NCBI GenBank assembly: GCA_900549105.1
Contig: URND01000002.1
Coordinates: forward strand, 3,581-67,580
Length of the DNA: 64,000 bases
Reading direction: 5' to 3'
Source: an uncultured Eubacteriales bacterium
GTDB taxonomy: Bacteria > Bacillota > Clostridia > Lachnospirales > Lachnospiraceae
The first letter of the stretch is position 1; each line of letters begins with the position of its first letter. Both the position numbers and the translations under genes were made by a program. This document shows positions 35,972 through 42,523 of the stretch, in pieces. The notes under the pieces are model-generated. The model had not been told where the DNA came from. It did not search any database and saw only the letters and a program-made list of their open reading frames with translations.

Positions 35972-37147
35972 ATGGGGAAAGCGGAAATCTGTCCGGTACA
36001 TAAAAAATGCGGCGGCCCCTGCCGTTATCAGGGTGTGCCCTATGAGGAACAGTTAAAAATAAAAGAAAAAATGGTTGGAAAACTGATGGGAAAATATTGC
36101 AAAATCCATCCTATCGTGGGGATGGAAAATCCAACCCACTATCGGAATAAAGTTCATGCAGTTTTTGACAGGGACAGAAAGGGAAACATTATTTCCGGCG
36201 TGTACAGAGAGGGTACCCATCAGGTTATCCCTGTGGAATCCTGCATGATTGAGGATGAATTGGCAGATGAAATCATAGGGACGATTCGCAAGCTGGCGAA
36301 ATCTTTCAAGATAAAAACTTATGATGAGGATACGGGATACGGACTGCTGCGGCATGTGCTTGTGAAACGGGGATTTGCCACGGGGCAGATTATGGTGGTT
36401 ATCATTACCGGTTCCCCGGTGTTCCCTTCCCGCAATAACTTTGTCAAGGCGCTTTTAAAAGAGCATCCGCAGATTACAACAATTATTCATAATATCAATG
36501 ATAAGCGGACGAGCATGGTTTTGGGCGAGCGGGAAAAAGTGCTCTACGGCAAGGGTTATATCGAGGATATTCTCTGCGGCAAAAAATTCCGTATCTCGGC
36601 AAAATCTTTCTACCAGGTGAATCCGGTTCAGACGGAGGTGCTTTATAAAAAGGCCATCGAGGCGGCAGGCTTTACCGGAAAAGAGTATGTGATTGATGCT
36701 TACTGCGGTATTGGCACTATCGGTATGATTGCCAGTGATTACGTGGATGAGGTGATTGGCGTTGAACTTAATCGGGATGCCGTCCGGGATGCCATCGGCA
36801 ATGCGAAGGCAAACAACATAAAAAATATCCGTTTTGTCTGCGATGATGCAGGAAAATTCATGGTAAAACTGGCCGCAGCGGCTCAGCGGGATAAAAGCGT
36901 CCGTCTGCCGGATGTGGTTCTTATGGACCCGCCGAGGAGCGGCAGCGACGAAGCCTTTCTGAGTTCCCTCGTGAAAATGAATCCAAAGACAGTTGTGTAT
37001 GTCTCCTGCAACCCGGTGACCCTGGAGCGGGATGTGAAATGGCTTGAGAAAAAGGGATATAAGGCAAGGGGCGTGTGGCCGGTGGACATGTTCCCGGCGA
37101 CGGAGCATGTGGAGACTATAGTGTCGATACAAAGAAAAGATATGTAG
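35972..37147 (+). CDS. 23S rRNA (uracil-C5)-methyltransferase, RlmD/RumA family (TRAM plus [4Fe-4S] plus class I MTase)
   Basis: The N-terminal Cys cluster is 'CPVHKKCGGPCRY'. Motif I is 'DAYCGIGTIG'. 'PPRSG' and the catalytic Cys in 'YVSCNP' are present. The long ORF from 35840 probably starts at MGKAEI. Confidence 0.8.
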   Translation: MGKAEICPVHKKCGGPCRYQGVPYEEQLKIKEKMVGKLMGKYCKIHPIVGMENPTHYRNKVHAVFDRDRKGNIISGVYREGTHQVIPVESCMIEDELADEIIGTIRKLAKSFKIKTYDEDTGYGLLRHVLVKRGFATGQIMVVIITGSPVFPSRNNFVKALLKEHPQITTIIHNINDKRTSMVLGEREKVLYGKGYIEDILCGKKFRISAKSFYQVNPVQTEVLYKKAIEAAGFTGKEYVIDAYCGIGTIGMIASDYVDEVIGVELNRDAVRDAIGNAKANNIKNIRFVCDDAGKFMVKLAAAAQRDKSVRLPDVVLMDPPRSGSDEAFLSSLVKMNPKTVVYVSCNPVTLERDVKWLEKKGYKARGVWPVDMFPATEHVETIVSIQRKDM

Positions 37148-37488
37148 AAATCCTTAATTTTAGGCATTTTCATAAGCATATTGTGTTTACAGATGAGGGT
37201 GAGAAAATGAGGAATAAGGAGATTAAGGATTACATTAATGTGTCGGTGGTGGTTGATATAGAGTGGGGAGATACAAGAAATTGAACGGAGTATAAACTAG
37301 TATGACATATATATTTTTATGAGCGGACTAGGGGTAATCTCAATATAAGCTTACAATTTTTATGAGTTTCGATAAGATATATTTGCCCTATTATAGTGTT
37401 TTCATAATGTAGCAAAAATGTGTAGAGAATAGGTTAGTAAGATGGTAAAATGTGCATATAGAGTTTTCATGCTAAAGGGGGCTTAATA

Positions 37489-38175
37489 ATGAGATTAGTC
37501 AATTATTGGTATATTGATAAGCAAGGTATAGATAATTTATTATCCCAGATATCTTCAGATTTTATTCAAGAAGAGCATATAAAGATGACTCAAAAAGGAG
37601 CTGGCAGCGTTTCTGGAAATATAGGTTTGGCGAAATTACTTAAACAACTGTTTAATGTAGATGTAAACTTGTCCGGTGGGGTTGAAACTACTCGTACAAT
37701 TGAAAAAGTAGAAATACAACCTTATGAAACAAAAATCCAACATCTCAAAAAGTATATTGAAGAAAATGAAGTTTTGTTGCGTAATAAACAGGAAATATTT
37801 ACAAAGTATGAGCTGGGAAAAACAAACTTTGTTTTTGGCAATATTGAATTTGATACAAAATTAAATGTAAAAAATTGGGAAGAAGCAGTGGGATTTATAC
37901 AGCAATGGGGATATATACCATTTTATAATAACGGTATAAATATGTATGACGAAAGAGATGATTATTTTAAGAATTCTAATGCTATTAATGCTGAAATAGT
38001 AATGAGCATGGGAATTGACAAAATGCAGACTTCCTATTCTGGATTTACTTCACATCTTGCGACTTCATTAAGAAAATTAGGTGGTAAAGACATTCCTTTA
38101 GGAGTTTTCGGACATATTTTGCAACTGAGTTCTGATTTTTATCAAATTAAGCCATATGCTGTTTGGCTAGGATAA
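37489..38175 (+). CDS. hypothetical protein (228 aa, no recognisable domain), first gene of the AT-rich island
   Basis: AAAGGGGG lies 8 nt upstream of the ATG. The ORF has an AT-rich codon composition distinct from the flanking genes. Confidence 0.5.
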   Translation: MRLVNYWYIDKQGIDNLLSQISSDFIQEEHIKMTQKGAGSVSGNIGLAKLLKQLFNVDVNLSGGVETTRTIEKVEIQPYETKIQHLKKYIEENEVLLRNKQEIFTKYELGKTNFVFGNIEFDTKLNVKNWEEAVGFIQQWGYIPFYNNGINMYDERDDYFKNSNAINAEIVMSMGIDKMQTSYSGFTSHLATSLRKLGGKDIPLGVFGHILQLSSDFYQIKPYAVWLG

Positions 38176-38267
38176 ATTGTAGAATGTACAACTTTATAAT
38201 CGCTTCATATATAATTGATAAATAGTTTTTTGTCTAAAATAGAGATAAAAATTTGGGAGGAATTAAA

Positions 38268-40295
38268 ATGATACTACCGTTAAGTGTAAAAAATCAAAGT
38301 ATAGAGTCGTCTGGGATTACGAATGACTATAAGGAAGCTATATGTGAATATATATGGAATGGTCTTGAAGCTCATGCGACAGAAATTAATATTAATTTTA
38401 GTCATAATATTGCCTATGGTATTGATAACCTCTCAATTTCAGATAATGGTGATGGGATTAGTTATGAGGAATTAGGAGATACATTTGGGGCATTTTTGGC
38501 TTCAAAGAAGAATCTTATGTCTTTGAAAATGAAATCTAAAGCGAATAAAGGAAAAGGACGATTTTCTTTTATGGCATTTGCATGTAGTGCAAAATGGACT
38601 ACGGTATATAATGATGGTAAAGAATTAAAAACATATGATATTATTTTGGAAAATGACAAAAAGGAAGTAATAATTTGTACGGAGCCAACAACGTCAATAG
38701 AAAGAAACACAGGTACTAAAGTATTTTTTAGTAATATTTATTCTTTGACAACAGAGAACATGGCTTTTGATGTACTTGAGCCTGTATTACTAAAAGAATT
38801 TGCATGGTTTTTATATTTATTCAAAAATCGAAATATAAGTATTTGTGTAGATGGAACACCTATTAATTATGGAAAATATATTAATACTGAGTTAAGCGAG
38901 AAAGTATCAAAAATAATTGATAATATCAGATTTGAAATTAATTTAGTTGTATGGCAAGAATCTATAAAAGAAAAATTTTGTTGTTATTATTTTGATAGTA
39001 CTGATATTGTAAGGGGTAGAGAAACTACGACATTTAATAGAAATACTATTGATTTTAATCATAGTGTTTTTGTAAAGTCTGAATTTTTTGATGAGAAAGA
39101 TGATATAGAAAAACAATTGGACGCTTTGCAAATTAGTTTGTTTGAATCAGAGGATGACAAAAAAACATTTAAAAAATTAAAAAAATTTATATCTTCTTTT
39201 ATCGAAAAAAAGATTGGAACATATATGTCACAAAGAGCAGAAAAGGCAATAAAAGAGATGATGGAGGAAAGAAAAACCTTTCCGACATTTTCCGATGATG
39301 CTTATGGGAGGATGAGAAAGCAAGACTTAGTAAAGATTACAGAAGAAATATATAAGATTGAACCTAAAATATTTTATAAACTTAAACCTATTCAGGAAAA
39401 ATCTTTGCTTGGATTCTTAAATTTGCTTTTAAATTCTGAGGAAAGAGAGAATGTATTATCAATAATTGAACAAATCGTTGAATTGTCGCCAGAGCAAAGG
39501 CAGGATTTTTCAGATATGTTGAAAAAAACTAAATTGGAAAATATTATAGAGTCTATAAAATTTATAGAGGGTAGATACAAAGTTATAGAACTGCTGAAAA
39601 CTATAGTATACGATTTGACGCAATTTGCTAATGAAAGAGATCATATTCAGAAAATTGTAGAACAACATTTTTGGCTTTTTGGAGAACAATATAATCTTGC
39701 CAGTGCCGATCAGCAGATGAAAAAGGCATTAGAGAAATACATCAATATTTTATATGGAGAAAACGACATTAATGCAACATTAAAGGAGGATGTTGAACAA
39801 GAGCGAAGAATGGATATTTTTATGTGTAATTCAAGAGAAGTCGAGAATTCATTTGAAACAGTGTTAGAAGAGAATATCATTGTAGAATTAAAAGCGCCAA
39901 AAGTTTCGTTATCAAAAAAGGTTTTAAGGCAAGTTGAAGATTATATGGATTTTATAAGAAAACAACCAGACTTTAATAGCGAGTACAGACGGTGGAAATT
40001 TATTGCTGTATGCAGACGAGTTGATGAAGATATAAAAAGTCGTTATGAAACCTTTAAAGATAAAGGAAAAATAGGATTAGTAGTACAAGTAGAAAATTAT
40101 GAAGTGTATGCATACACATGGGACGATGTATTTAAAAGTTTTGAACTAAGACATGCCCCAATTTTGAAGCGGTTAAAATATGACAGAGAACAGTTGGCAA
40201 AAGAACTTATGGATGAAGTTGCATCGGATGAGGGGCGTGGTAAAGTAGATGCTTTAACAGACATAGCGGTATCAACTATTTCAAACGTACAATAA
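38268..40295 (+). CDS. GHKL (histidine-kinase/MORC-type) ATPase fused to a C-terminal PD-(D/E)xK-like nuclease domain
   Basis: GGGAGG lies 8 nt upstream of the ATG at 38268. The N-box-like motif is 'EAICEYIWNGLEAHATEININF', the G1 box is 'ISDNGDGIS' and the G2-like motif is 'GKGRFSFMAF'. The C-terminal 'RMDIFMC...IIVELKAPK' gives a D...E-x-K pattern. Confidence 0.55.
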   Translation: MILPLSVKNQSIESSGITNDYKEAICEYIWNGLEAHATEININFSHNIAYGIDNLSISDNGDGISYEELGDTFGAFLASKKNLMSLKMKSKANKGKGRFSFMAFACSAKWTTVYNDGKELKTYDIILENDKKEVIICTEPTTSIERNTGTKVFFSNIYSLTTENMAFDVLEPVLLKEFAWFLYLFKNRNISICVDGTPINYGKYINTELSEKVSKIIDNIRFEINLVVWQESIKEKFCCYYFDSTDIVRGRETTTFNRNTIDFNHSVFVKSEFFDEKDDIEKQLDALQISLFESEDDKKTFKKLKKFISSFIEKKIGTYMSQRAEKAIKEMMEERKTFPTFSDDAYGRMRKQDLVKITEEIYKIEPKIFYKLKPIQEKSLLGFLNLLLNSEERENVLSIIEQIVELSPEQRQDFSDMLKKTKLENIIESIKFIEGRYKVIELLKTIVYDLTQFANERDHIQKIVEQHFWLFGEQYNLASADQQMKKALEKYINILYGENDINATLKEDVEQERRMDIFMCNSREVENSFETVLEENIIVELKAPKVSLSKKVLRQVEDYMDFIRKQPDFNSEYRRWKFIAVCRRVDEDIKSRYETFKDKGKIGLVVQVENYEVYAYTWDDVFKSFELRHAPILKRLKYDREQLAKELMDEVASDEGRGKVDALTDIAVSTISNVQ

Positions 40296-40341
40296 TCATT
40301 AATAAATTGGGGAATTGCAATAATTGGACACGAAAAAGCAG

Positions 40342-40420
40342 CCAGTCCGTCTAGTGGTGTGCGAAGCGAAAGCCGCTAGTACGGACTAGCCTGTGTTGGA
40401 TTGGCGTAAGCCAATCCAAC
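40342..40420 (+). other. two adjacent stem-loops at the 3' edge of the island
   Basis: The first is an imperfect ~13-bp hairpin (CCAGTCCGTCTAG ... CTAGTACGGACTAG). The second is a perfect 11-bp hairpin GTTGGATTGGC-GTAA-GCCAATCCAAC at 40395-40420. No strong U-tract follows on the + strand. Confidence 0.5.
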
Positions 40421-40587
40421 TTGTATCCCGGATATCTAACAGTGGGGTACAAATACAATAGGAAATAGGAATCAAAATGCTCGAAACGCTGATTATATAA
40501 GGCTTTAGAAGCATTAGGACTGTATGTGACAAAATTGAAAAATATCACATATTCCATAAATAACTGAAAACCGTTGAATCAAGAGAT

Positions 40588-40616
40588 TTGAATTTAGGTA
40601 TTAAGCATAGTATAAT
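40588..40616 (+). promoter_or_regulatory. sigma-A-type promoter of the GntR-family gene
   Basis: The -35 TTGAAT, a 17-nt spacer and the -10 TATAAT lie about 25 nt upstream of the ORF. Confidence 0.5.
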
Positions 40617-40640
40617 GGCAGAAAAGGTTAAGGTGAGATT

Positions 40641-41315
40641 ATGAAAGGGAATAAGATGTTATCACAAAGTGTTGCGGATAATATTCTATCCATGATAACA
40701 ATAGAAAAAAGATTTTCTGTCGGCGATAAATTACCAAATGAACTGGATTTATCAGAAGAATTGAACGTAAGCCGTACTACGCTGCGAGAAGCAATCCGAA
40801 TTTTGGTTGCTTTGGATATACTGGAAATTCAAAGAGGAAAAGGAACATATGTCAAAGAAAATGCATTTAAAAAGCAACAGGATTTAGAACAGCTATCAAA
40901 TATAAAAGTTAATGCGAGAGATTTATATGAAATGCGCTTGATATTTGAACCGGAGGCTGCTTATTATGCTGCTTTAAGGGCAACAGATTCCGAAATAAAG
41001 AGGATATTAGAATTTGGCAAAAAGGTGGAAAAGGAAATCAGCAATCATCAAGACAGAACAGATGATGAACATTCTTTTCACAAAGCGATTGCACAGGCTA
41101 CCCATAATGAATTTATGAATAAACTTATGCCGATTTTATATCAGGCGATTTCAAAGGGAGTATACTTATCTTTACAGAGTGATAAGGCCATTGAAGATAC
41201 AATAAATGACCACAGAATGATTATGGAATTTTTGGAGCAGCGTAATGCAGAGGGCGCCAAAAATGCTATGAAGATTCATATCATGCACGCAATGAAAGAA
41301 TTAGGACTTGATTAA
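40641..41315 (+). CDS. GntR-family transcriptional regulator (FadR/FCD subfamily)
   Basis: The N-terminal wHTH is 'LPNELDLSEELNVSRTTLREAIRILVALDILEIQRGKGTYV' and the C-terminus is an all-helical FCD-like domain. Confidence 0.8.
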   Translation: MKGNKMLSQSVADNILSMITIEKRFSVGDKLPNELDLSEELNVSRTTLREAIRILVALDILEIQRGKGTYVKENAFKKQQDLEQLSNIKVNARDLYEMRLIFEPEAAYYAALRATDSEIKRILEFGKKVEKEISNHQDRTDDEHSFHKAIAQATHNEFMNKLMPILYQAISKGVYLSLQSDKAIEDTINDHRMIMEFLEQRNAEGAKNAMKIHIMHAMKELGLD

Positions 41316-41458
41316 CATTCTAGGTTCTTGCCCTGAAGGCAGGGACCTATATTTTTGAATATAGACATCATACAACTAATTGACATCATACAAATTAGAG
41401 AATATAATCAGAGTGAGAATAGGATTCTTAATATAATGATTTTAGGAGGCATGATGAA

Positions 41459-42079
41459 ATGAAGAAAATTGATTTGTCTGCATGGGAACGAAGCTTGCAC
41501 TATCAAGTATTCCGAGATAGTGTACAACCACAGTATTGTGTGAGCTTTGACCTTGATATTACGAACTTTTTGTCACAAATCAGATTGAAAGGTTATTCAT
41601 TTACGTTTTCTTTTGTATTTGCTGTTTCAAAGTGTGCAAATGAGATTAAGGAGTTCCGATACCGATTTGTAGATGGTGAGCCTGTTGAGTTTGAAAGAAT
41701 TAATACAGCATTTACCTATTTGAATAGAGAAACGGAGTTATTTAAAGTTGTAAATGTGGAAATGCAAGATACGCTGGAAGAATATGTGGCGGTAGCAACT
41801 CGAATTGAAAAAGAGCAAAAGGAGTATTTTACTGCTCCACTAGGAAATGATGTATTCCAGTTTTCAGCTTTCCCTTGGGTGAGTTTTACTCATATTTCCC
41901 ACACGGATTCGGGCAAAAAAGATAATGCAACGCCGCTATTTGATTGGGGTAAATATTACGAAAAGGACGGTAAAATTTTATTGCCATTTTCAGCACAGGT
42001 GCATCATTCTTTTGTAGATGGTGTGCATATCGGGAAATTAGCAGAGAAATTGCAGCACTATTTGGATACTTATAAATAA
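41459..42079 (+). CDS. chloramphenicol O-acetyltransferase-family (type A CAT-like) protein
   Basis: It shows CAT architecture throughout. The C-terminus 'WGKYYEKDGKILLPFSAQVHHSFVDGVH' aligns with the CAT catalytic-His region (HHAVCDGFH), and the N-terminus 'IDLSAWERSLHY' is also CAT-like. Confidence 0.75.
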   Translation: MKKIDLSAWERSLHYQVFRDSVQPQYCVSFDLDITNFLSQIRLKGYSFTFSFVFAVSKCANEIKEFRYRFVDGEPVEFERINTAFTYLNRETELFKVVNVEMQDTLEEYVAVATRIEKEQKEYFTAPLGNDVFQFSAFPWVSFTHISHTDSGKKDNATPLFDWGKYYEKDGKILLPFSAQVHHSFVDGVHIGKLAEKLQHYLDTYK

Positions 42080-42097
42080 TGTGTTAGGAGGATAGGT

Positions 42098-42523
42098 GTG
42101 AGTAATCGTAAGGCAGCTTTTTCGGCAGAAAGCTATACCCTTTCGGGCATTCCGCATGTCAGATGCTTCGCATGGGCGCGCTGCGTCAGGCTTCGCGCGA
42201 TAAGGTATGATAAAGATATTTTAAATACTATACCGTATTATGATAAAGCTTATAATCAGATAGCAGATGTGGTTTCAGCTGCATTTTCAAATAAGGCAGT
42301 ATCTTGGCTGGATATAGGCTGTGGGACTGGCAAAATGGCAAAAGTGGCATTTGAACAATGCAATGTGGAAAAGATGATTTGTACGGATAATTCATCTGTT
42401 ATGTTAAAGGTTGCAAGACAGAAAATCAGTTTTCCCAGTGTAGAATTTTTAAAACTTCCAGTAGAAGAAATAAACTATGATTCGCAATTTGATGTAATTA
42501 CTTCTATCTTGGTGAATCACTAG
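42098..42523 (+). pseudogene. class I SAM methyltransferase, C-terminally truncated, with copy 1 of a 66-bp repeat embedded in its 5' end
   Basis: Motif I 'LDIGCGTGK' is present. The ORF ends at '...ILVNH' before the usual post-IV motifs, and the downstream frame is broken by several stops. Confidence 0.45.
42142..42207 (+). repeat. 66-bp GC-rich repeat, copy 1
   Basis: ttcgggcattccgcatgtcagatgcttcgcatgggcgcgctgcgtcaggcttcgcgcgataaggtat. It is about 91% identical to copy 2 at 47176-47241 in the same orientation. Confidence 0.8.

Follow-up and report, generated by a model that had tools for sequence, protein, structure and literature searches.

The AT-rich insert that follows rlmD in the analysed window (the whole stretch of 64,000 nucleotides) probably consists of two separate cassettes, recently brought together in a hotspot that occupies the rlmD 3' end, with gene B predicted to encode a self-contained immune nuclease of the paraMORC3 or GHKL-type Shedu kind. 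Gene B is presented here as a probable defence gene of an already described kind. The initial annotation had proposed a two-gene module of uncharacterised kind, and neither part of that proposal held: gene A lies near B in only one of 80 genomes, the cassette carrying A is found at 88% identity with a different downstream ORF, and B displays the paraMORC3/GHKL-Shedu architecture (PMC2292703, PMC12137116). The features are listed below by their positions in the window.

37116–37147, + strand: left breakpoint of the strain-variable region, within the final ~10 codons of rlmD
37401–40311, + strand: A-B unit, 2.9 kb, also present as a whole in another genomic context
37405–38263, + strand: A cassette: gene A preceded by its promoter region and followed by the A-B spacer, as far as the next gene's ribosome-binding site
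37423–37451, + strand: putative TG-extended promoter ahead of A (TAGAGA-17-TAAAAT), from a consensus scan only
37489–38175, + strand: gene A, 228 aa, with a GGGGG Shine-Dalgarno sequence 8 nt upstream
38268–40295, + strand: gene B, 675 aa, ATG at 38268, Shine-Dalgarno sequence present
38325–39150, + strand: residues ~20–295 of B, Bergerat-fold ATPase plus MutL/Hsp90/GyrB-type transducer (S5-like)
39630–40190, + strand: residues ~455–640 of B, PD-(D/E)xK nuclease domain (E473, D516, E540-x-K542, Q555)
40312–40606, + strand: lineage-specific spacer that separates the A-B unit from the gntR module and holds two hairpins

Composition of the Insert and Architecture of Gene B

The GC profile of the window showed values of 0.25–0.33 over positions 37250–40250 versus 0.44–0.53 upstream, in agreement with the low GC content first noticed, and values of 0.33–0.38 were still found across gntR, CAT and a methyltransferase gene, as far as ~42750. 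The presence of two co-oriented genes, each preceded by its own Shine-Dalgarno sequence, was confirmed, with the larger protein having 675 residues instead of the 676 originally given, as in the public gene calls. The degenerate A/T repeats described at the 5' edge were not recovered, since TRF and a repeat finder returned only short chance matches between 37150 and 37490.

The reading of B as a fusion of a GHKL ATPase and a nuclease fold was also upheld, the complete layout being a GHKL ATPase, a middle domain, then a long helical region, and finally a PD-(D/E)xK nuclease. The Pfam model HATPase_c_3 matched residues 22–141 (E 1.7e-16), and DUF3883, proposed in the same annotation, was matched by no member of the B family in Pfam. 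Residues E27, N31, D59, G61, G63, G95-K-G-R98 and T150 were invariant in 27 relatives with 37–100% identity. In the AF2 model, residues 100–360 reached pLDDT values of 75–90, and Foldseek aligned 300–460 columns to TRAP1, Topo II, MutL LN40 and PMS2 with E values from 1e-9 to 1e-10, the partners being two-domain ATPase fragments, GyrB among them. The C-terminal 270 residues, modelled with 20 close homologues, showed pLDDT below 50; the C-terminal domain was remodelled from a 94-sequence alignment obtained through a homologue search seeded with distant relatives, and its nearest Pfam family was HSDR_N_2. All the catalytic residues are intact, both in the GHKL ATP-binding site and in the E-D-ExK nuclease site. 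The dN/dS ratios (0.07–0.10 for B and 0.09–0.14 for A) show purifying selection on both genes.

By analogy with MutL, Topo VI, MORC and VcSduA, ATP binding would close an N-terminal dimer gate of B, the middle and helical arms would then clamp DNA, and this clamping would license cleavage of the invading DNA by the nuclease domains at the C-terminus, with ATP hydrolysis resetting the clamp.

Similarity of B to Described Immune Nucleases

The paraMORC3 proteins, described mainly from Proteobacteria and Bacteroidetes, combine a GHKL ATPase, an S5 domain and a C-terminal E-D-ExK endonuclease and are often encoded by stand-alone genes (Iyer, Abhiman and Aravind 2008, PMC2292703). Gene B was assigned to this group through the published description of the architecture: it has a GHKL domain with intact ATP motifs, an S5-type transducer and a C-terminal restriction-endonuclease-fold domain with the E-D-ExK motif, and it is sporadic, laterally mobile and frequently stand-alone, with occasional restriction-modification (RM) neighbours. 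It differs in coming from gut Clostridia (Lachnospiraceae-like), being ~40% identical to its Bacteroidota relatives.

The same GHKL-nuclease architecture is found in VcSduA of Vibrio cholerae, which was reported in 2025 to protect against T1-like phages, an activity abolished by either E27A or K557A (PMC12137116). GHKL-type Shedu proteins constitute type I-D, with an HATPase_c_3 N-terminus and an Hsp90/MORC-like middle domain (bioRxiv 10.1101/2023.08.10.552793). The likeness of B to VcSduA is one of architecture: each is one polypeptide that begins with a GHKL domain (with E27 as the motif I glutamate in both cases), continues with a clamp-like middle region and ends in a PD-(D/E)xK nuclease. 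B is likewise carried in a variable genomic island and distributed as a single gene. In contrast, the Pfam signature of Shedu, DUF4263 (PF14082), was matched by none of the 31 B-family members scanned, and the PADLOC SduA models gave marginal matches, one among 27 members at 1.4e-4 plus a Deinococcus homologue at 0.02. On B itself, PADLOC v2 produced only chance matches to Cas2 (E 0.04–0.08), and for A it found nothing, so that the absence of a match to Gabija, Septu, PARIS, Hachiman, Lamassu, RADAR or any other PADLOC v2 system stood.

With MutL, MORC and Topo VI-B, gene B shares the ATPase and transducer fold, and likely also an ATP-driven dimerisation coupled to DNA cutting. The C-terminal domain of B is unrelated to theirs, B is not a core gene, and its scores against these family models fall far under the cutoffs.

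Distribution and Neighbours of B

Relatives of B were found in 80 species-representative genomes of Firmicutes and Bacteroidota, and full-length relatives were detected in Firmicutes, Bacteroidota, Proteobacteria and Deinococcus. Homologues were also located on plasmids of several phyla, conjugative ones included, and in two Pasteurella phage records. One cluster, 72% identical to B and named from Agathobacter rectalis, was indexed in 963 collection blocks, with 608 contigs counted; a Bacteroides uniformis cluster of the family held 397 member sequences. In A. rectalis, the 304-aa gene that precedes B turned out to be unrelated to A.

No conserved neighbour cluster was found across the 80 B loci. 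The most frequent neighbour was a large serine recombinase gene directly upstream (18 loci), other frequent ones being RhuM and type I RM genes, and a DUF1016/YhcG-like nuclease, named by eye from its sequence, lay beside B in nine loci. The plasmid homologues adjoined dcm and LlaMI, a type ISP RM or a DNA methyltransferase. Within two genes of B, PADLOC matches (dereplicated, E ≤ 1e-8) corresponded to type I, II and IIG RM and to retron/DRT reverse transcriptases, in addition to mad2, PDC-S05 and PDC-S02. The GHKL-nuclease family of B is abundant in human-gut bacteria and invisible to PADLOC v2, and public records label its proteins only as "ATP-binding protein". If the family is linked to the validated GHKL-Shedu/paraMORC3 type, inventories of gut defence would gain an immune gene that is common but at present unannotated.

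A Strain-Variable Slot at the 3' End of rlmD

The insert had been delimited by the rlmD stop codon and the gntR promoter, and strain comparison placed both boundaries elsewhere. In the alignment, the conserved flank common to loci L138, L139, L141, L143 and L145 stops at window positions 37115–37122, locating the left breakpoint within the last ~30 nt of rlmD (37116–37122), and the right breakpoint falls at 40607 or 47197 according to the strain. The A-B insert is part of a larger variable region spanning ~37.1–47.2 kb. Given these right breakpoints, gntR is a member of the variable region and not a housekeeping flank. RlmD has 390/391, 480 or 493 aa according to the cargo, and the 3' end of rlmD is supplied by each cargo variant itself.

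Look-ups of the rubrerythrin and GntR proteins identified strains with identical flanking proteins and other cargo in the same slot. One such cargo carried a Drt3b reverse transcriptase (DRT3; PADLOC E 8.7e-126) with a type IIG RM, another was a mobilisable MobA/RepA_N element, and a third consisted of KilA-N/RhuM genes. An exact look-up of the window RlmD returned the same context and no other. The rlmD–gntR junction, for which a presence/absence comparison had been suggested, is polymorphic among sister strains. The insert is horizontally acquired, as originally proposed, and the slot is a strain-variable hotspot of defence genes and mobile elements. No tRNA or tmRNA gene was detected in the scan, which rules out a tRNA-linked island. 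At the edges of the insert, searches for tandem and dispersed repeats gave nothing convincing and flanking direct repeats were absent. The rlmD 3' end is a usable anchor to find defence cargo in this lineage.

Gene A and Its Recent Pairing with B

Gene A matched the Pfam family DUF6414 over its N-terminal 73 residues with 18.4 bits (E 0.002), under the 25-bit cutoff. Among 77 representatives of the A family, 54 matched DUF6414 at E ≤ 0.01, the best at 1.9e-8, and the PADLOC DolA model matched a single one of them (0.0048) and not A itself. These data suggest that A, a stand-alone protein, is a distant relative of DUF6414 (DolA-like). The Dodola system is formed by DolA (DUF6414) and the ClpB-like DolB, according to the account of Millman et al. 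2022 given in bioRxiv 10.1101/2024.10.26.620412 and PMC11514479. As in Dodola, A precedes a co-oriented gene for an ATPase, and its family is a distant DUF6414 branch. The differences are that A has ~230 aa versus the 283 positions of the domain model and lies under the Pfam cutoff, that there is no ClpB-like DolB beside A and no Clp domain in B, that the relatives of A have no recurrent partner, and that the A-B pairing is not conserved. No solved structure related to A was found by sequence, nor any relative of A in phage and plasmid collections.

The A cassette, within which the promoter-like site falls, was 88.5% identical to its counterparts in L019 and L023, where homology ends as soon as an unrelated ORF of 69 aa begins, at its start codon; in L019, this ORF is not a remnant of B. 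In ~30 loci with a relative of A, B was present only in the window lineage and in L026, no neighbour cluster recurred except in one group of closely related contigs, and many relatives of A were bordered by convergent genes. Gene A most likely acts on its own.

The A-B unit of the window was 91.9% identical over 2915 nt to that of L026, in which the place of rlmD ahead of the unit is taken by serine-recombinase genes, and the pair was found again in L151 and L152, with B 94% identical. It has moved as one piece at least once, and a functional pair would look the same. The single genome, among the 80 with a B relative, in which A lies nearby has a B that is 94% identical, and A adjoins B only within a clade of 93–94% identical B sequences, never at B identities of 86% or less. 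As A also occurs elsewhere without B, the pairing is recent and not that of a conserved system. The A-B spacer of 92 nt contains no terminator-like site in the scan, and for this reason the two genes are probably co-transcribed in this recent lineage.

Alternative Explanations

It could be argued that A and B form a true two-gene system, comparable to Dodola with the GHKL-nuclease in place of DolB, in which the DolA-like A would sense infection or would gate or neutralise B. The co-orientation of both genes, their short spacer devoid of a terminator-like site, the recurrence of the 2.9-kb segment at 92% identity in two unrelated contexts and again in L151 and L152, the relationship of A to a family of a known two-gene system, and the fact that the A cassette provides the next gene with its ribosome-binding site and with the position of its start codon would fit this explanation. 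However, A is missing from 79 of the 80 B loci, including all those of B relatives at ≤86% identity, its own relatives are almost never accompanied by B or by a conserved partner and often have convergent flanking genes, an unrelated ORF follows the cassette in L019 and L023, and a single gene suffices for the validated relative of B (PMC12137116). We consequently regard a true two-gene system as unlikely. A hybrid variant would make A a sensor, gatekeeper or antitoxin for the GHKL-clamp nuclease, the two having been assembled by recent cassette exchange, with the conserved 3' part of the A cassette, from the spacer through the ribosome-binding site to the position of the start codon, docking interchangeable effectors. 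There is a small chance that this is correct, in which case a Dodola-type first gene would have been recruited to a Shedu-type effector.

Alternatively, B could serve a mobile element, either as a nuclease against competing elements or plasmids, in element maintenance, or as partner of an unlinked RM system. The serine recombinase gene directly upstream of B in 18 of the 80 loci, the presence of B on conjugative plasmids and in the two Pasteurella phage records, and the RM genes adjoining its plasmid homologues would be expected from such a role, but these are exactly the positions where cargo defence genes typically reside, and in the window B has neither a recombinase nor an RM gene with it. 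RM-linked functions were considered for the family by Iyer et al. (PMC2292703); against this, VcSduA moved to E. coli protects against phage alone (PMC12137116). A mobile-element role is accordingly rated as quite improbable. Finally, the weak N-terminal similarity of B to MutL, PMS1, MLH1 and Top6B might suggest a housekeeping ATPase of the MutL, GyrB, Hsp90 or Topo VI-B type, with an incidental low GC content, a possibility against which the initial annotation had asked the large protein to be checked. The similarity is restricted to the ATPase and transducer region, the NCBIfam scores (23.3 bits versus a cutoff of 180 for MutL, 17.8 versus 1310 for Top6B) lie far below the thresholds, the C-terminus is a PD-(D/E)xK nuclease and not the MutL C-terminal domain, and the presence of B varies among strains with identical flanking proteins. 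This strain polymorphism, together with the domain architecture, effectively refutes the housekeeping explanation.

Hairpins Downstream of B

The two strong hairpins described at the 3' edge were confirmed at positions 40344–40388 and 40395–40420, the segment 40296–40450 having a minimum free energy of −59.9 kcal/mol (z = −5.5) with equally good folds in 0 of 200 shuffles. Neither is followed by a T-run or called by the terminator scan. As no Rfam family was matched, either in the whole window at the gathering threshold or in 37000–42400 at E ≤ 1, the hairpins do not correspond to a known RNA. The spacer that holds them (40312–40606) is absent from L026 and from L132/L136, homology with the latter resuming at 40607, and the hairpin motif is confined to window-type loci.

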